This document shows positions 18,576 to 40,887 of a stretch of DNA of 64,000 nucleotides, one piece after another. A program made the position numbers and the translations under genes. The notes beneath the pieces are model-generated. The model did not search any database and was not told the origin of the DNA. It saw only the letters and a program-made list of their open reading frames with translations. Position 1 is the stretch's first letter. The number at the start of each line of letters is the position of its first letter. The stretch is from a phage. The stretch is from sequence record PZ445523.1; one strand, written 5' to 3'.

Positions 18576-18605
18576 ATTATACCACATCCTTGTGGCAAAG
18601 TAAAC
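18576..18605 (-). promoter_or_regulatory. Early promoter
   Basis: GTTTAC, 18 nt, TATAAT; upstream of paralog B. Confidence 0.65.
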
Positions 18606-19627
18606 TAGTTCAGTGCATTTAGTGCATTGTTCAGTTTAGAACGTTGCTTTGCCAGATTTTGAACCCTTGACTGCGCTTGTTCTAACACCTTTTCAGCTTC
18701 TAGCACTTCATTGGTCGCTTTAACGAGTTCATCATCTACTGCCTTAAGAGACTTCTCAATCGCATCAGCGTGCCATTTTTCTACAGGTTTAAAATTTGAA
18801 TTTTCAGTAGGAAGAAAATTCACTTTATTAAGTTTACATGCATCTATATTGCTTGAGCTATACATCCAAAATTTAGGATCGTTTGAGGAGTAATTAGATG
18901 AATTTAAGGTATCTTGCACTTCCTGCTTTTTCTCTTGAACAACTTCGTCCTTTCTCAAAAATTCATATTTAAATGAAACGACCATATCAAGTTCATATGT
19001 TGTTGTGTCTAATTTAAATCGTTCGAAATGCCGCGAAATCCTAGACTGAACACCAGCAACAACATCCATATACTTAAATGCTTCTGTCAACTGTGATTTA
19101 AGGCATTCACAAATTGAAAGAGAATTTTTTGTATTAGGTTTAAAGCTAATTCGTGCAGTTCTATTATTTTCTTTTAACGGTCTTACTTCCATCTGAAGAG
19201 TATAACCATCAAATTTAAGATTCTTTAAGTTAATATCAGAACCTTTTAATCGACTAGCAGTAGACAAAATTTGCTTTAATTGTTTACGGAATAAAGCAAT
19301 AAATCTCCATTCAAGACGATAATGATTTGGATTAAAAAATCCAGTTGATAGATCGGTCTTACTTTGACCAACGCCTCGAACAAATAGAGGATTTTTATAA
19401 TCAATAGTTTTACAGAAATCAACGAGCTGCTCGCGAGCAGTCATTTGTGTAATATACCCTGATTCATTAAAATTACGCACCCATTCACTGCTGTTCAGAT
19501 GTTTAAAGGCGTGAATGGAACAATTAACTTTATTAAGGTCTAAATTATTTTCACACAAAAATGTCATAACATCACGATTATAGCTGGCATTACGAACCAT
19601 ATCTTCAATTTGAGAACGAGTTTTCAT
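18605..19627 (-). CDS. Paralog-family protein C with C-terminal coiled coil
   Basis: 340 aa; starts MKTR like protein A; KYMDVVAGV central motif. Confidence 0.6.
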   Translation of the reverse strand: MKTRSQIEDMVRNASYNRDVMTFLCENNLDLNKVNCSIHAFKHLNSSEWVRNFNESGYITQMTAREQLVDFCKTIDYKNPLFVRGVGQSKTDLSTGFFNPNHYRLEWRFIALFRKQLKQILSTASRLKGSDINLKNLKFDGYTLQMEVRPLKENNRTARISFKPNTKNSLSICECLKSQLTEAFKYMDVVAGVQSRISRHFERFKLDTTTYELDMVVSFKYEFLRKDEVVQEKKQEVQDTLNSSNYSSNDPKFWMYSSSNIDACKLNKVNFLPTENSNFKPVEKWHADAIEKSLKAVDDELVKATNEVLEAEKVLEQAQSRVQNLAKQRSKLNNALNALN

Positions 19628-19635
19628 GGTGTTCC

Positions 19636-20550
19636 TTAAGATTTAAGTAAATCAACAATTTTAATTAACTTTTCACGCTCAGATTTAGCTTTACTACTCA
19701 GTCCAGATAGTCTGAAAATTTCATCGTCATATTGTTGAATAGAAATATTCAGCTCTTCAATTTGCTTATTAAAATAATCAATTTGCTCAGAATGTTTTTC
19801 GTTACTACGAACTGGTGCAGGTTTTGTAGGCAATTTAGTTGAACTGGATTCATCCGGGCGATAAATTAAAATACAATTTGAACCAATCGGGCATTTAGCA
19901 CCAGACACATATTCTAATGTTCCAGCTTCTTTTAAAACTTCAAAAGCTAAACAGAGATGATGCCCCATATTAACATAATCTGTAGAGCGAGCTCTGATGT
20001 AATAATCATCTCCACGAGTACTAAATTTAAAGCATTTAAGGTCTTCTGTATTATTAGTTTTAAAAATCATTTGTTTATCTAGACCTTTAGCTAATCGAGC
20101 GCCTAATGCTAATAATCGTCGTTGATTTTCCCACAAATCCGCAATCATTTGGTCGAATGATAATTTCGGCATTAGTCGGCCATAAAGGTCATATCCTTTA
20201 TTATAATTACGAAGGATTTCACTCGCGTTAATACGAGACAATGCTCCAATTTTATTAAGGGCTTTCATAATGCGATTAGATAAACTCATTCCAGACCCAT
20301 TTGTTCGCTGTAAATGTTTTTCTAATCCAAATCCAATATCAACTTTAAATTTATCTAAAATTTCAGCATGAACATCTCTGTCAATAACATTCAAATCCAA
20401 AGTTGGGTTAAATCTATGAAAAAATTTATCTGGCTCTCCACGACGAAATACAGTCCATTCATTCATCATTTTTTTATTAACTAAGGATTTAATTACTGCA
20501 TTGACATTATTAATTACTACTGACATATTTTCCTCACTCAATTTTACCAA
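19636..20550 (-). CDS. Paralog-family protein D with C-terminal coiled coil
   Basis: 304 aa; same size class and C-terminal coiled coil. Confidence 0.55.
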   Translation of the reverse strand: MVKLSEENMSVVINNVNAVIKSLVNKKMMNEWTVFRRGEPDKFFHRFNPTLDLNVIDRDVHAEILDKFKVDIGFGLEKHLQRTNGSGMSLSNRIMKALNKIGALSRINASEILRNYNKGYDLYGRLMPKLSFDQMIADLWENQRRLLALGARLAKGLDKQMIFKTNNTEDLKCFKFSTRGDDYYIRARSTDYVNMGHHLCLAFEVLKEAGTLEYVSGAKCPIGSNCILIYRPDESSSTKLPTKPAPVRSNEKHSEQIDYFNKQIEELNISIQQYDDEIFRLSGLSSKAKSEREKLIKIVDLLKS

Positions 20551-20990: not shown

Positions 20991-21518
20991 TTATGCGAGT
21001 ACCGTCTTTAACCGTTCTTCAAACTTCCGAAGAGTATTCTGGCGTTCAGCTCTTTGCTTTTTGTAAGTTTCAATACGCTCTGAAATGAGAGTGTATCGTT
21101 CATTTACTGATTCTTTCATAAAATCAGGAATTTCACGAGAAGCTTTAATCTCGTCAAATTTATCAATAACAGCTTGCTCTTCAGCAATTAAGTTATCATA
21201 CATCAAAATATCTTTCTTGATGAACTCAATATCTTCTTGAGTTACACGAGATAACTTAGATGCTTTATCCTTTTTGTACTGTTCGTTAGTATCACGAGAC
21301 CAGTGTAATGTACGATTTTTATTCGTATTCTTGTAAATTTCTACAATACCAATCTCATCAATAATAACGATCCAATTCCAACGGGATTTGTAAATTTGTC
21401 CTCCATCAACAGTGATTTCACCTCCGATTGAGATGTCATTAAAGAACTTGCTTTGTGCTTCAGATTTAAATTTACCATCGTTGTAATTTACCAGGTTGAA
21501 AATATCTTTAGCGTTCAT
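20991..21518 (-). CDS. Hypothetical protein with C-terminal coiled coil
   Basis: Likely start MNAKDIF; upstream ORF-track extension is the translated promoter. Confidence 0.5.
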   Translation of the reverse strand: MNAKDIFNLVNYNDGKFKSEAQSKFFNDISIGGEITVDGGQIYKSRWNWIVIIDEIGIVEIYKNTNKNRTLHWSRDTNEQYKKDKASKLSRVTQEDIEFIKKDILMYDNLIAEEQAVIDKFDEIKASREIPDFMKESVNERYTLISERIETYKKQRAERQNTLRKFEERLKTVLA

Positions 21519-21546
21519 TTTGTGTTCCTCCGTAGTTGATAGTTGT

Positions 21547-21576
21547 ATAGTACCACAGAGGAACGGTCTTGTAAAC
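21547..21576 (-). promoter_or_regulatory. Early promoter
   Basis: GTTTAC, 18 nt, TACTAT. Confidence 0.6.
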
Positions 21577-21578
21577 AA

Positions 21579-21893
21579 CTAAAAGAAACTTCTTTCACAA
21601 TTTTTTCCACTGAACCACGCGCTCACTGCTTTCTTAGTCTCAGGAGCAGTATTATCCATAAACCATTCAAAGGCAGCCTTTTTATGATTCTGGAGGGCTT
21701 CTCGGGCTTTAATCTGCTCACGGTCTATTAACACTAACATATGAGCCTTTCTTGTCACCATGGGCTTCTTATGATTTTTTGAATACTCCCAATCATTTGT
21801 CCATCGCATCGTTGTTGCGAACTGGAATACAGCTTCTTTAATTTTAGTTTCGTAAATTTCACGAGCCTTTGAGTATAACATCACTACCTCCAT
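21579..21893 (-). CDS. Hypothetical protein
   Basis: 104-aa ORF. Confidence 0.4.
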   Translation of the reverse strand: MEVVMLYSKAREIYETKIKEAVFQFATTMRWTNDWEYSKNHKKPMVTRKAHMLVLIDREQIKAREALQNHKKAAFEWFMDNTAPETKKAVSAWFSGKNCERSFF

Positions 21894-21963
21894 TTACCAG
21901 TTTAATTCTAGTCATCTTTTTGATGGCAGTCCATATAATCTATTTCTGAACTGCCTTTTTGTC

Positions 21964-22683
21964 TTATGATTCTTCTAAATGTCTTTTCTGAAAAGTTGAT
22001 ACCATACTACGATAAGGTTCATTTGGATACCCGTGTTTTATAGCTTCCTTTGTAAATTTTCTCCATCCGTATTTAGTTTCTTTCCAAAGCTCGAATAATT
22101 CATCTTCATACTGCCATATAGTTAAATGAGAACGCTTTGCAGCTTTAATTCCATTAATGTGCTTTTCTTTTACTGTAGGATTGCTTAGTGTCTTTTTAAT
22201 AATATTACTAACTTTTCTAACAAAAGCTGGGTCCTTATATCGTTGTGAAGTTTTTATTGAAGTGTTTAATTTAGCTTCCGGCGTGGATGTGACCTCTTTC
22301 ATCTTTTTCTTCATATGCTCTATATGATTAGGATTTTTCCATAAATTTATAGAATGCTTTTTACATTTTATCCTAGTTTCATCTGCAACCTTTCCTCCTT
22401 CACCCCCATATGACAGGTTAACGCAGTTTTTTCCATATTTCAATTTACCTGCCATGATATATAATATTTCGGCTTGTACCATTTTATCATAATTATCAAA
22501 AACTTCTAAAACCGTTTTTGATAATATATGGTCATTTGACACTTTTACACGTTCTATATAATTTCCACTACCAACATACGAATCATTGATGTTATTAGTT
22601 ATATGTCGACCATAATAGTATTTCTTAATACCTGTCTTTAAATTTAATATTTCAGTTTTATAGATAGTAAAATATTTTTTCAT
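21964..22683 (-). CDS. Seg-like GIY-YIG homing endonuclease
   Basis: N-terminus YYYGRHITNNINDSYVGSGNY and later NLSYGGEGG align with the SegB ORF in this window (KIYIGVHSTENLDDGYMGSG, NLKLGGEGG). Confidence 0.6.
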   Translation of the reverse strand: MKKYFTIYKTEILNLKTGIKKYYYGRHITNNINDSYVGSGNYIERVKVSNDHILSKTVLEVFDNYDKMVQAEILYIMAGKLKYGKNCVNLSYGGEGGKVADETRIKCKKHSINLWKNPNHIEHMKKKMKEVTSTPEAKLNTSIKTSQRYKDPAFVRKVSNIIKKTLSNPTVKEKHINGIKAAKRSHLTIWQYEDELFELWKETKYGWRKFTKEAIKHGYPNEPYRSMVSTFQKRHLEES

Positions 22684-23648
22684 TTTAATAATACCGTTTC
22701 AGCAATTTCTTCCCAATGGTTTTTGTCGGTCATAATAAAGTCAGCAAGATAAAGTGCAGTACGCAGTGAAACATTGCGTAAACGATTAACATTGACTTTC
22801 ATCCATGATAATGCTTTATAAGTTTCTTCATCAGAAAGACCGCGCTTTTGCATCATGTCAGTTGAAAGAATAACATCTTCAACCCTGACCATAATTTCTT
22901 CATTAGTGTGAACACCCAAATCTAAATAAACTGAGCGGGACACTAATGCTTGTAAATGTGGAGCAAGTTTAGTACCACGGTCTAATTCGCGGTCAATATC
23001 AACGTTTGTGATAAAAACAATCGTTCCTTTAAATTCAAACTCACGCTCAATGCCTTTTTCTTCTAAGTAAGAAGATGCAGTGCTCCAGCAGACTTTACGG
23101 GTCTCTCCAGTGTCCAGAGCAGCTTTCAGAAGATTAAGAATGTCCATATCAGAGAAAACATCCACATCATCAATCAAAAGGACAGAATTCTCTTCACGAT
23201 TATTCCAAAGCTGTTCATAAAGACCGATACCAGAGATTTTACCATTAATGCTTTTATACTCAATGTATCCAATATCATTTGCTTTATTCAAAGCTTTATC
23301 TAAAGAATACGTTTTACCAATACCTGCCGCACCAGAGATAATTAATGAACGAATGTTTCCGTTAATAATACCATTCGTCATCATTCCCATAACATTAAAT
23401 CTTTTATTAATGCGGGTTTTCATATCTTCATATGATTCTTTAACTTCTTCAACTTTTACACCATCATATGAAATGTCTGATTTGTAAACCCAAACACCGC
23501 GACGTTTACCATCAATTTCAACAAAAACTTTACCGTCTCCTTGTGCATCTACCGGAGCATTATCTGGGAACCATTCGCCTAAGAGCTCAAAAGTTCCAGA
23601 AATTTCTTTACCGAAGTAGATACCCTTATTGATAGTTACAGTTTTCAT
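22680..23648 (-). CDS. AAA+ ATPase
   Basis: Likely start MKTVTINKG; Walker A ISGAAGIGKTYS, Walker B VLLIDDVD, sensor-like TNV. Confidence 0.7.
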   Translation of the reverse strand: MKTVTINKGIYFGKEISGTFELLGEWFPDNAPVDAQGDGKVFVEIDGKRRGVWVYKSDISYDGVKVEEVKESYEDMKTRINKRFNVMGMMTNGIINGNIRSLIISGAAGIGKTYSLDKALNKANDIGYIEYKSINGKISGIGLYEQLWNNREENSVLLIDDVDVFSDMDILNLLKAALDTGETRKVCWSTASSYLEEKGIEREFEFKGTIVFITNVDIDRELDRGTKLAPHLQALVSRSVYLDLGVHTNEEIMVRVEDVILSTDMMQKRGLSDEETYKALSWMKVNVNRLRNVSLRTALYLADFIMTDKNHWEEIAETVLLK

Positions 23649-23682
23649 TTTATTCTCCAAATCCGTATCAGTTGATAGTTGT

Positions 23683-23712
23683 ATAGTACCATAAAGCTTT
23701 ATGCTTGTAAAC
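23683..23712 (-). promoter_or_regulatory. Early promoter
   Basis: GTTTAC, 18 nt, TACTAT; upstream of the AAA+ ATPase gene. Confidence 0.6.
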
Positions 23713-23742
23713 AACTTTGTGAAAAATTTTTGAAATAAAAAA

Positions 23743-23762
23743 GGGGAGCCCGAAGGCTCCCC
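23743..23762 (-). terminator. Intrinsic terminator after the nucleotidyltransferase gene
   Basis: GGGGAGCC-UUCG-GGCTCCCC followed by a T-run on the minus strand. Confidence 0.7.
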
Positions 23763-23763
23763 A

Positions 23764-24777
23764 TCATTTATAATAACTTCGGTGGTTTTCAAGATAGACC
23801 TTCTCAAGGAAGTCATCCCAGAAACTCATGTCTACTTTTTGCTGCATACCGTTCTTAGAAGCTTCAGTAGATGCTGCTTCTACTTGATCGACCACATCTT
23901 CCAAAAACTCTTGAACCGTTTTAAATGGATGTTTACCCAACTTCACGTCGAGAATAAATGGAGCATCTTGGAGTGGATAAATCAAGTCGCCAGTTTTGTA
24001 AATTTCCAATAGTTGAAGTCCACCACGACAAGCATGGCTCAGAGCTTTCCAGTCAATACCTTCATTGGCTTCAGCCTTACGAGCACGTTCACCGTATTCA
24101 GCATCTAATTTGTTCAGTGACTGCTTAAGCTCAATAAGAGAAAGCGTTGTCTGATATTTACGACCCAACACAGTGTAGAACGTTTGTGGGCCTGTTTTCT
24201 CATGATTATGGAACACCCATTCACAGAATTCGTTTTCTGGAAGACGATGCTTAATATCTTCAACTTTAGTGCGACGCTGCTTAATAGAACCATCTTCTTG
24301 GTAATCAACCCATTGCTCAGGGATTTGATTAACTACTTTCAATACATCACGTAATGCAGCCAAACGAGAACCCTTGACACCGTATTTAGAAGCTTGCTTG
24401 CGGACATATCCTAAATATGATTTCATGTTAGTCGTATAAAAACGAGAACGGTTGTCTTGAATAAACTTCCACACATCAGGCAAATCAGATTTAACCACTA
24501 GTTCAGGTGGAGTGTGAAGCATATCTAATGCTACAGTTTCACCATCTGCTGCTAATTTAAAGAAATATTTAAGACTGTATAGTTCATGGTCAATATCATC
24601 TTTAGTGTTTTTAGATGATGTGTTGTTAGTGTTTTTACTCATATGCTCTTTAACATTTCCGATAAGAATATCGCGAGCAGGAGGAACAAAGATTTCTTTA
24701 AAATCTACATCAGATTCTGGGGTAGAAGTTCCATAAAGATGACTACCAAAATAGCTTTTCATTACTGTTTTCATCAT
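23764..24777 (-). CDS. Nucleotidyltransferase (Pol-beta / minimal NTase fold)
   Basis: N-terminal FGSHLYGTSTPESDVDF matches the GS-x(9-13)-DxD nucleotidyltransferase signature; 337 aa. Confidence 0.6.
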   Translation of the reverse strand: MMKTVMKSYFGSHLYGTSTPESDVDFKEIFVPPARDILIGNVKEHMSKNTNNTSSKNTKDDIDHELYSLKYFFKLAADGETVALDMLHTPPELVVKSDLPDVWKFIQDNRSRFYTTNMKSYLGYVRKQASKYGVKGSRLAALRDVLKVVNQIPEQWVDYQEDGSIKQRRTKVEDIKHRLPENEFCEWVFHNHEKTGPQTFYTVLGRKYQTTLSLIELKQSLNKLDAEYGERARKAEANEGIDWKALSHACRGGLQLLEIYKTGDLIYPLQDAPFILDVKLGKHPFKTVQEFLEDVVDQVEAASTEASKNGMQQKVDMSFWDDFLEKVYLENHRSYYK

Positions 24778-25235
24778 TCAGCCTTATATTCAATAACAGG
24801 ACATACTTTAGCTTTACGAGCTTTTAAAAATTCAACGATAATCGATTTCTTGGGTTGAATAGGAGGTAAACCTTTATACGCCCTATCAATATTTTCTATG
24901 TGTAAAGCATAATCCTTTTTCCATTTATAATCTTTATATTTTTCACGCAAATGTGCAGGAATAACAAATGAACCGATAATAAGTAAAACAACCAAAAGCG
25001 CAAGTATAAATGCTGATGGAAGCAAAGTCCATAAACTACCAAAAATAAGCCAACGTTGTAGGCTTTCTGCACAAATAATTGTTAGCCCTACGAGTATAGC
25101 ACACCCAAAAATAGAAACGAAAAATGTAGGAATAGCAATAGACCAAAAATATGCGCATAGTGTCTTAGGTCGTTGCCATTCATCGTTAAACAATTTGAAT
25201 AATTTATAGTGCCAAGAGTTTTCATTAATAATCAT
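24774..25235 (-). CDS. Integral membrane protein
   Basis: 153 aa with about three predicted transmembrane helices. Confidence 0.5.
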   Translation of the reverse strand: MIINENSWHYKLFKLFNDEWQRPKTLCAYFWSIAIPTFFVSIFGCAILVGLTIICAESLQRWLIFGSLWTLLPSAFILALLVVLLIIGSFVIPAHLREKYKDYKWKKDYALHIENIDRAYKGLPPIQPKKSIIVEFLKARKAKVCPVIEYKAE

Positions 25236-40221: not shown

Positions 40222-40887
40222 TTAAAATTTCATTTTTCGACCTTTAAACCATCCTTCTGGAATTGGGTCAGTTTTCTTAATACGTTTAGAAACTTTTTCA
40301 TCTAATGAATGAATCCACATCATACCAAATTGGGAATTCTTTTCACCTTTCTGGTGATTATTTTTAGCGTGAATTTCTTTCATTTTATTAATAGTTTCAA
40401 GAGTATGATGCTTATTTAAAAATCTGCTATTATTTAAAAATTTTTCTTTGTATTCAGGAGTTGACCATAAACGTTTAAATACATTTGAACCATTTTTACG
40501 ATATTTTTCTTGAAGTAAAATATCATTTTCAAAACGTGACTTAAACGATTTAGCTCCTTTTAAGCTAGCATCTTTCTTCTGGTTTAGCATTCCAGGAATA
40601 TTTACATGATCCCATCCGCCTTCACCGCCAAGTTTTAAATTATACACATCTGGTCTATTTAAAAACTCTTCTGTGACAATATTTTTCTCGGCTTCAAGCA
40701 TAGATTCTTTATCATCAAAATACTCTAATATTTCTTTAGAAAAATTTTCTATACCATATTTATCTTGGGCTCTTTTTAATAATTTACCAGAACCCATATA
40801 TCCATCATCTAAATTTTCGGTAGAATGCACACCAATATAAATTTTATTATTAATTTTATTTGTTATTTTATAAGTGTAATAGAACAT
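40222..40887 (-). CDS. segB: GIY-YIG homing endonuclease SegB
   Basis: 221 aa; YKITNKINNKIYIGVHS...GSG GIY-YIG module; sits inside the tRNA cluster as in T4. Confidence 0.8.
   Translation of the reverse strand: MFYYTYKITNKINNKIYIGVHSTENLDDGYMGSGKLLKRAQDKYGIENFSKEILEYFDDKESMLEAEKNIVTEEFLNRPDVYNLKLGGEGGWDHVNIPGMLNQKKDASLKGAKSFKSRFENDILLQEKYRKNGSNVFKRLWSTPEYKEKFLNNSRFLNKHHTLETINKMKEIHAKNNHQKGEKNSQFGMMWIHSLDEKVSKRIKKTDPIPEGWFKGRKMKF

Follow-up and report, generated by a model that had tools for sequence, protein, structure and literature searches.

Introduction

The closest described relatives of the gene considered here are the seg genes of T4-like phages. SegB and the other members of the group (SegA-G and SegH) are encoded by free-standing, intergenic genes of the T-even genome, and the same holds for our gene. 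At least one of the T4 proteins, SegD, is said to lack the ability to spread its gene by homing. I-TevI consists of a nuclease, a linker and a small helix-turn-helix (HTH) DNA-binding domain. SegB of phage T6 has been described as a driver of the amplification of anti-defence loci, both in cis and in trans (PMC13096335). In their review of T4-related genomes, Petrov et al. (2010) tally six seg-like genes in T6 and two each in RB32, RB14 and RB51, which are not described further there (PMC2993671).

We analysed a 64-kb stretch of phage DNA (hereafter the window) which carries one such gene on its minus strand. A previous sequence-only reading had proposed that the gene encodes a second free-standing GIY-YIG (Seg-like) homing endonuclease and marks a likely point of insertion of a mobile element. 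We infer homing and regard the gene as a free-standing Seg (GIY-YIG) homing endonuclease gene, a selfish mobile gene of T4-like phages, with a probability of about 0.8; so read, it is an ordinary selfish gene, an element of a known kind in these phages. The annotations of T6, RB32 and some 65 further phage genomes already label the gene as seg-like. Literature searches on nrdC.10, nrdC.9, RB32ORF093c and the possible names segI, segJ and segK found no paper that names or characterises it. We believe that the observation has little significance beyond correct annotation and will not surprise a specialist in T4 mobile elements; it nonetheless provides a precisely defined insertion site.

The gene and its genomic context

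The open reading frame listing places the gene exactly where it had been proposed, at 21964..22683 on the minus strand, with an ATG start, 239 codons for amino acids and a TAA stop. Positions 21000..24800 of the window are 97-98% identical, over their full length, to T6, RB32, RB14, RB51, AR1 and many other Tequatrovirus genomes, and by this sequence identity the window is a T6/RB32-like Tequatrovirus. The gene corresponds to RB32ORF093c and to T6 KMB99_gp092. The prediction has been in GenBank since RB32, whose copy is labelled [quoted passage not shown], and the labels elsewhere are “DNA endonuclease”, “homing endonuclease” and “segE”. The last of these, found in the AR1 and RB68 records, is a naming error, since the segE of T4 is flanked by inh and uvsW (table in PMC2988022).

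In the direction of transcription the order of genes is nrdC.11, nrdC.10, the endonuclease gene, nrdC.9 and nrdC.8 to nrdC.5. The first of them encodes an RlaP-type nucleotidyltransferase. nrdC.10 (22680..23648, minus strand) encodes a P-loop/AAA-like protein of 322 aa, as delimited by the T6 and RB32 annotation and by a match to PHROG 1250 (E 1e-165) which spans residues 57-378 of an over-extended open reading frame. nrdC.9 (21579..21881, minus strand) encodes a DUF7203 protein (Pfam E 3e-15) and is placed by alignment with T4 and by the T4 and T6 annotation. Between nrdC.10 and nrdC.9 the endonuclease reading frame is free-standing, and both neighbours are intact in the genomes that carry it as well as in those that do not. 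The sequence-only reading had described the surroundings as an AAA+/nucleotidyltransferase pair on one side and a block of coiled-coil paralogs on the other. The arrangement was described correctly (nrdC.11 and nrdC.10 upstream, nrdC.9 to nrdC.5 downstream); the paralogy of the downstream proteins is weakly supported, the 340-aa and 304-aa proteins matching each other at a pairwise E = 0.009. As a separate observation, mobD is missing from the window and a 153-aa membrane-protein reading frame stands in its place.

A consensus scan found a promoter-like site of the sigma-70/T4-early type, TTTACA-17-TACTAT, upstream of nrdC.10 (23683..23711, minus strand), which is the only candidate able to serve the endonuclease gene, as part of an nrdC.10-seg-nrdC.9 unit. 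The same promoter-like cassette occurs again upstream of nrdC.8. The upstream end of the transcription unit is marked by a terminator-like GC-rich hairpin with a T-run after nrdC.11 (23743..23762, minus strand), and the annotation of phage e11/2 has a terminator at this position. No promoter of the endonuclease gene itself was found, the sigma-70 scan giving weak 9-of-12 matches inside the region; nor was there a late-promoter motif TATAAATA within about 5.7 kb of the gene, or a clear Shine-Dalgarno sequence before its ATG. The TGA of nrdC.10 overlaps this ATG (ATGA) in the carriers. Judging from these consensus matches, the gene is likely to be co-transcribed early with nrdC.10 and translated at a low level by coupling at ATGA. 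nrdC.10 is likely the upstream partner of the endonuclease gene in one transcription unit and the host of its target site.

Assignment to the GIY-YIG family

The assignment had been based on a motif shared with SegB of the same window, Y-x-G-x-H-x-T-x-N-x-x-D-x-Y-x-G-S-G with a GGEGG element, and this motif is indeed present in both proteins: the N-terminal part of the endonuclease reads YYGRHITNNINDSYVGSG ... GGEGG, and SegB (40222..40887, minus strand) reads YIGVHSTENLDDGYMGSG ... GGEGG. A tblastn comparison of the protein with the whole 64-kb window matched SegB at E = 8e-11 (27% identity over 170 aa) and gave no other match below E = 1. SegB is also the best match within the T4 genome records, again at 27% identity. 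Calling the gene the “second” of its kind is correct, because a family profile built from 149 relatives, applied to the window translated in all six frames, picks out exactly two Seg-type reading frames, namely SegB and the one considered here.

A failed profile search for a GIY-YIG domain had been named beforehand as refuting the assignment, and in a literal sense the search did fail: curated profiles miss the protein, and its homologues and the family profile recover the domain. Neither PF01541 and PF19835 nor the NCBIfam models matched the full protein or its N-terminal 102 aa at E <= 10, and scans of the two halves of the protein gave no GIY-YIG match. SegB of the window scores 28.3 bits on PF01541, above the cutoff of 22.6. 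The four extra residues in the hairpin of the endonuclease were considered as a cause of the Pfam miss and rejected, since their deletion in silico still gave no match. A phmmer search of the single protein against the PDB sequences gave noise only, and Foldseek found nothing in the PDB with the predicted model.

Relatives were therefore collected by an exhaustive phmmer search of representatives, which was used instead of a word-indexed protein search that had given two relatives only; it yielded 1488 at E <= 0.001. SegE_GIY-YIG (PF19835) is matched by 62, PF01541 by 49 and NUMOD3 by 54 of the best 149 of these 1488 homologues. The protein itself matches PHROG 314 “homing endonuclease” at E 4.4e-30, and the family profile matches the I-TevI catalytic domain (1LN0) at E 1.7e-6. 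Since the homologues match GIY-YIG models and the family profile matches I-TevI, we consider on these sequence comparisons that the miss by curated profiles is a limit of sensitivity and not an absence of the domain. A standard Pfam/NCBIfam scan can thus overlook a genuine Seg-type enzyme, which family-level profiles and fold comparison recover.

The alignment of the family profile with 1LN0 pairs Y8 with Tyr6, Y23-x-G25 with Tyr17-x-Gly19, E72 with Glu75 and N89 with Asn90. The GIY and YIG motifs are represented by T6-I7-Y8 and Y23-Y24-G25, on model strands 4-14 and 20-29. Conservation of at least 90% among the homologues is found at Y8 (135/139), Y23 (143/145), G25 (145/146), H27, D34, Y36, G38-S39-G40, E72, N89 and G93-G94, with Glu72 kept in all 147 sequences and Asn89 in 146 of 147. 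The two motifs usually lie 10-11 residues apart on adjacent beta-strands; the offset between the two tyrosines is 15 residues instead of 11, an unusual but tolerated variation that recurs in about 20-30 homologues. In the same alignment the I-TevI segment with Arg27, the canonical catalytic arginine of the first helix, is an I-TevI-specific insertion relative to the endonuclease family. The candidates for a counterpart of this arginine are His27, which is His in 137 and Arg in 7 of 146 homologues, and Arg45, which is Arg or Lys in 74 of 147.

An AlphaFold model built with the alignment of homologues has a mean pLDDT of 95.5 (a single-sequence model, with a pLDDT of 41, was unusable), and its N-terminal domain has the beta-beta-alpha-beta-alpha catalytic fold. 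Homology and the predicted fold together support the protein as a Seg-type GIY-YIG endonuclease. One could suppose instead that the protein is not of this family and that its resemblance to SegB is convergent or compositional, as might be suggested by the searches that failed when given one sequence or its model (Pfam, NCBIfam, phmmer against the PDB, Foldseek). The strength of the SegB match, the match of the family profile to I-TevI and the GIY-YIG Pfam matches in a third to two fifths of the homologues make this extremely improbable in our opinion.

Domain architecture

The endonuclease is built of three parts. The N-terminal catalytic domain (aa 1 to about 98; 22390..22683, minus strand) contains TIY (6-8), YYG (23-25), His27, D34-x-Y36-x-G38-S39-G40, Glu72, Asn89 and GGEGG (93-97), and its beta-hairpin is four residues longer than in most relatives. 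In the middle region (aa about 99-186; 22126..22389, minus strand) there are about 17-aa “(S/N)P-x-h-K-x-K” repeats and five helices in a row, which the model places at residues 101-116, 118-132, 135-150, 152-166 and 169-190. We presume that this region probably forms a NUMOD3-like linker that tracks along DNA; the endonuclease itself has no match to the NUMOD3 model, unlike 54 of the 149 homologues mentioned above.

The C-terminal module (aa about 187-239; 21967..22125, minus strand) consists of three helices with the pattern W-x-Y-x-x-E-L-F-x-L-W ... F-x-K-x-A ... G-Y-P-x-x-x-Y ... F. It is a probable helix-turn-helix domain that reads the sequence, and it is also found in other T4-like endonucleases, those of the HNH type included. 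Some relatives (P0009, P0010) have the module as three or four tandem copies.

Insertion site

The gene had been proposed to mark an insertion point, and a comparison with related phages lacking it had been recommended for finding the site. This comparison defines the site with precise junctions immediately after nrdC.10. Junctions were aligned for the empty genomes of T4, pSs-1, e11/2, RB18 and PhiZZ23 and for the occupied genomes of T6, RB32, RB3 and SHFML-11 together with the window. Relative to the empty genomes, the insert comprises about 735 nt (21964..22698, minus strand) and replaces 38 nt, GGTTACTCTTCTGAAATAATTCATAAGAGGCCTTCTAW, of the common empty allele; the replaced segment has 39 nt in T4. 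The common empty allele (pSs-1, e11/2, RB18 and PhiZZ23) reads ...GAAATYGCTGA GGTTACTCTTCTGAAATAA TTCATAAGAGGMCTTCTAW GACAAAAAGGCAGTTCAG, and the carriers (the window, T6, RB32, RB3 and SHFML-11) read ...GAAATYGCTGA AACGGTATTATTAAAATGA...(endonuclease gene)...TAA GACAAAAAGGCAGTTCAG. T4 lacks the gene. Between nrdC.9 and the TAA at 21964-21966 the window and T4 differ at a single position, and the identity resumes at about 22701, inside nrdC.10; the 82-nt spacer between the endonuclease stop and the nrdC.9 start (21882..21963) is that of T4 save for one position.

The 3' end of nrdC.10 is recoded in the carriers (22680..22700, minus strand): over the last six codons and the stop, 12 of 21 nucleotides differ. 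The tail reads GAA ACG GTA TTA TTA AAA TGA (ETVLLK*) in the carriers and GAG GTT ACT CTT CTG AAA TAA (EVTLLK*) in the empty allele, so the amino acids are almost unchanged despite the number of nucleotide differences. T4 has a tail of its own, TGYSSEINS*, which is derived from the common empty form by a frameshift. Exactly 67 records have the recoded tail, a count equal to that of the carriers, and the others align only up to GCTGA. Such strict linkage would be expected if the tail belonged to the recognition or cleavage site and protected the carrier; the sequences suggest that the recoded tail is a putative form of the target site protected from self-cleavage. The locus thus offers precise empty and occupied sites and a 21-nt candidate target/immunity sequence at the 3' end of nrdC.10.

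Distribution and selection

The insert of about 735 nt is carried by 67 phage records including the window, in one full-length copy each that is at least 96.8% identical, the genes being 98-100% identical, and a contiguous empty site with 38-39 nt in its place is found in about 435 Tequatrovirus records, T4 included; an insertion point is therefore evident. Only about 13% of the Tequatrovirus records have the gene.

A homologue in Klebsiella phage vB_KpnM_Wolf_ER13 (XNS42219.1) is 46% identical over its full length, has the same three-part architecture and directly follows an nrdC.10 that is 74% identical to that of the window. The spacing is different, with 8 nt between the nrdC.10 stop and the endonuclease gene in Wolf_ER13 and an overlap in the window, and so are the downstream neighbours and the sequence of the nrdC.10 tail. 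The Klebsiella homologue is polymorphic too: seven records carry the gene, as judged by a coverage of at least 80% of the query, and the flanks are matched at 95-99% by about 140 records, of which the three listed lack about 690 nt. On these alignments the tie to the 3' end of nrdC.10 is conserved across two genera and polymorphic in both, which fits a site-specific mobile gene.

The endonuclease is under purifying selection, since pN/pS between diverged copies (the window against T6, RB32 and SHFML-11) is 0.08-0.14; the value for nrdC.10 is 0.00-0.03 for comparison. Nearly all of the 67 carriers have an intact reading frame. The RB3 copy has a 7-G insertion in the run coding for GGEGG and is annotated as two reading frames; this insertion could be a homopolymer sequencing error. 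The G157lw copy matches in two pieces, and the protein databases contain a frameshifted form of 104 aa (P0004) and a relative with 42% identity that is truncated at its N-terminus (P0002). Homing endonuclease genes typically show such a mixture of constraint and decay among their copies.

The degenerate copies in RB3 and G157lw also bear on the question of whether the protein is a catalytically dead relic which binds DNA only or does nothing and whose gene persists by linkage. The miss by curated GIY-YIG profiles, the unusually long beta-hairpin and the canonical arginine, for which there are only the candidates His27 or Arg45, point the same way. We nevertheless consider a relic very unlikely: Tyr8, Tyr23, Gly25, Glu72 and Asn89 are all kept, active Seg enzymes, SegB for example, have His27 and the D-x-Y-x-GSG signature as well, the prediction of the GIY-YIG fold is a highly confident one, and the pN/pS values and the intact reading frames in nearly all carriers speak against it.

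The flanks were compared in nine genomes (four carriers and five non-carriers) over about 1.4 kb on each side. No carrier-linked flanking haplotype was found, nor any carrier-specific polymorphism beyond about 20 nt next to the junction; outside the junction the divergence between carriers and non-carriers equals that within the groups. The “fixed differences” which a script reported inside the insert were rejected as an alignment artefact of placing the 38-nt segment of the empty site. The sequence-only reading had also suggested that the gene may promote the exchange of its neighbours in mixed infections. By analogy with SegB, SegF and SegG this is plausible; since the flanks of the nine genomes have no fixed differences, co-conversion of the neighbouring genes would have left no visible trace, its tracts being either short or erased by later recombination.

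Discussion

What is known of I-TevI and of SegA, B, C, E, F and G allows us to propose how the gene would spread. The endonuclease would be transcribed early together with nrdC.10 and translated at a low level through coupling at the overlapping ATGA. It would act as a monomer, in which the C-terminal and linker modules bind an extended asymmetric site at or close to the nrdC.10 3' end of a phage without the gene and the GIY-YIG domain tethered to them cleaves both strands a short distance away; the ends left by GIY-YIG enzymes are typically 2-nt 3' overhangs. During mixed infection, T4 recombination would repair the broken genome from the carrier template and thereby copy the endonuclease gene along with a variable length of flanking DNA. 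The carrier allele would be spared because the insert splits its site and 12 of 21 positions are altered.

A different view of the same gene is that it encodes an active GIY-YIG nuclease which no longer homes, or does not only home, and is kept for its benefit to the phage, either by excluding co-infecting relatives or through breaks that favour the recombination or segmental amplification of anti-defence or accessory genes. The effect of T6 SegB on anti-defence loci, whose amplification it drives in cis as well as in trans (PMC13096335), sets a precedent, and the gene lies within an accessory block (AAA-like, nucleotidyltransferase). Its pN/pS of about 0.1 is of a similar order to the 0.00-0.03 of nrdC.10, and a flanking haplotype linked to carriers was not seen in the nine genomes. 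Presence or absence at one site in two genera, together with a strictly linked recoded sequence resembling a target, is the classic pattern of homing; the restriction of the gene to about 13% of Tequatrovirus records argues against a generally useful function, and broken copies occur. An active nuclease that has ceased to home, or does more than home, is in our opinion unlikely.

Considering that the gene has stayed beside nrdC.10 in two genera and has a DNA-binding region in common with MobD, it is tempting to propose that it serves mainly as a recombination or amplification hotspot for the adjacent nrdC.10 and nrdC.11, and is not merely a selfish homing element. By analogy with the amplification driven by SegB in T6, these two genes could have anti-defence functions. 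We regard the hotspot proposal, which is itself built on analogy, as distinctly improbable, and the selfish homing endonuclease gene remains our preferred reading.

Comparison with known systems

The endonuclease and SegB share the signature of the Seg clade, Y-x-G-x-H-x-T-x-N-x-x-D-x-Y-x-G-S-G ... E ... N-L-x-x-G-G-E-G-G, are close in size (239 aa for the endonuclease, 221 aa for SegB) and have helical “PE-x-K” repeats past the catalytic domain. They differ in locus, nrdC.10/nrdC.9 for the endonuclease and the tRNA cluster for SegB, and in the hairpin between GIY and YIG, which is four residues longer in the endonuclease. SegB passes Pfam PF01541, and the endonuclease does not. The C-terminal module is of the W..LW...GYP..Y..F type in the endonuclease, whereas that of SegB is of the WI..G...I..IPEGW type.

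I-TevI (PDB 1LN0/1MK0) is encoded in the td intron of T4, and the endonuclease gene lies outside any intron. The proteins align at the Tyr, Tyr, Gly, Glu and Asn positions and are parallel in their tripartite plan of nuclease, linker and DNA-binding domain, although the parts are different. Their identity is only 18%, and the segment of I-TevI bearing Arg27 has no aligned counterpart in the endonuclease. The linker of the latter is made of helical repeats and, unlike that of I-TevI, has no zinc finger, the only cysteines of the protein being at positions 87 and 107.

The third comparison is with MobD. In T4, mobD is a free-standing gene next to nrdC.11, in the same gene block and only about 2 kb from the site considered here. 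MobD has the repeat region in common with the endonuclease and likewise a W..LW...GYP..Y..F module at its C-terminus (27% identity over 116 aa, pairwise E 2e-6), but its catalytic domain is HNH and that of the endonuclease is GIY-YIG. The DNA-binding region common to these two proteins is an example of the exchange of modules between families of endonucleases.

Results

The gene immediately upstream of the endonuclease gene, nrdC.10, is listed as a 378-aa ORF on the minus strand (window 22680-23816), and this ORF is over-extended. Its homologues and PHROG 1250 begin only at residue 57 of this ORF; therefore, the real nrdC.10 is 22680..23648 on the same strand and encodes 322 aa. Its overlap with nrdC.11 is only apparent and arises from the use of the first ATG as the start. 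A near-identical cassette lies on the minus strand upstream of both nrdC.10 (window 23630-23770) and nrdC.8 (window 21500-21640) and reads GTTGTTTACAAG...TGGTACTATACAACTATCAAC..TACGGA..GGA..AAAATG. The cassette resembles an early promoter with its leader, present in two copies; the repetition of the cassette is the reason why nrdC.10 and nrdC.8 carry similar spurious N-terminal extensions (...GTIQLST...) in the longest-ORF listing.

In the T4 reference, nrdC.10 ends with TGYSSEINS* (T4 sequence L003:1044-1085), whereas in the other phages with the empty site it ends with EVTLLK*. Two single-base indels account for the difference between the tails, which makes T4 atypical among the empty alleles of the endonuclease site. 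Just downstream of the insertion point there is an imperfect hairpin, GGCAGTTCAGAAATAGATTATATGGACTGCC (window 21925-21955, minus strand), which is kept in carrier and empty alleles alike; it was not among the terminators picked out by the scan.

Broken or truncated copies of the endonuclease gene also occur. The RB3 copy (L015:1443-2169) has a 7-G insertion within the run coding for GGEGG; this reflects either a frameshift or a sequencing error in the homopolymer. In phage vB_EcoM-G157lw (H41) the match is split in two pieces, the relative P0004 is a frameshifted form of 104 aa, and the relative P0002 has a catalytic domain without its N-terminal half.

The gene mobD adjoins nrdC.11 in T4 and RB3 and is missing from the window, where its place is taken by an ORF for a predicted membrane protein of 153 aa (24774-25235, minus strand); the RB32 record is annotated at this position as "replaces mobD". 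The mobD position makes a second presence/absence site, at a distance of about 2 kb from the endonuclease gene. The sequence-only reading also spoke of a block of coiled-coil paralogs. The two proteins so called, one nrdC.5-like with DUF7235 (window 18605-19627, minus strand) and one nrdC.6-like (19636-20550, minus strand), resemble each other only marginally: their best pairwise match spans 21 residues at E 0.009, and paralogy is not established.

Discussion

The segment of I-TevI that bears the catalytic Arg27 has no aligned counterpart in the Seg clade of the window enzyme. In its stead stands the invariant loop G-x-H-x-T-x-N-x-x-D-x-Y-x-G-S-G with His27 (protein residues 25-45, nucleotides about 22549-22611); the His27 position is occupied by Arg in 7 of the 146 relatives.

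Two relatives, P0009 (312 aa) and P0010 (370 aa), carry three or four copies of the C-terminal three-helix module in tandem behind one GIY-YIG domain, which suggests that the DNA sites they recognise are longer or repeated. T4 MobD (L003:3130-3909) is 27% identical to the product of window 21967-22290 over 116 aa, with a pairwise E of 2e-6. The two proteins have in common a helical "PE-x-K" repeat region and a C-terminal module W..LW...GYP..Y..F, the latter without Pfam coverage. MobD is a free-standing endonuclease of the HNH family, and the window enzyme is of the GIY-YIG class; therefore, one DNA-binding region is found on two unrelated nuclease domains.
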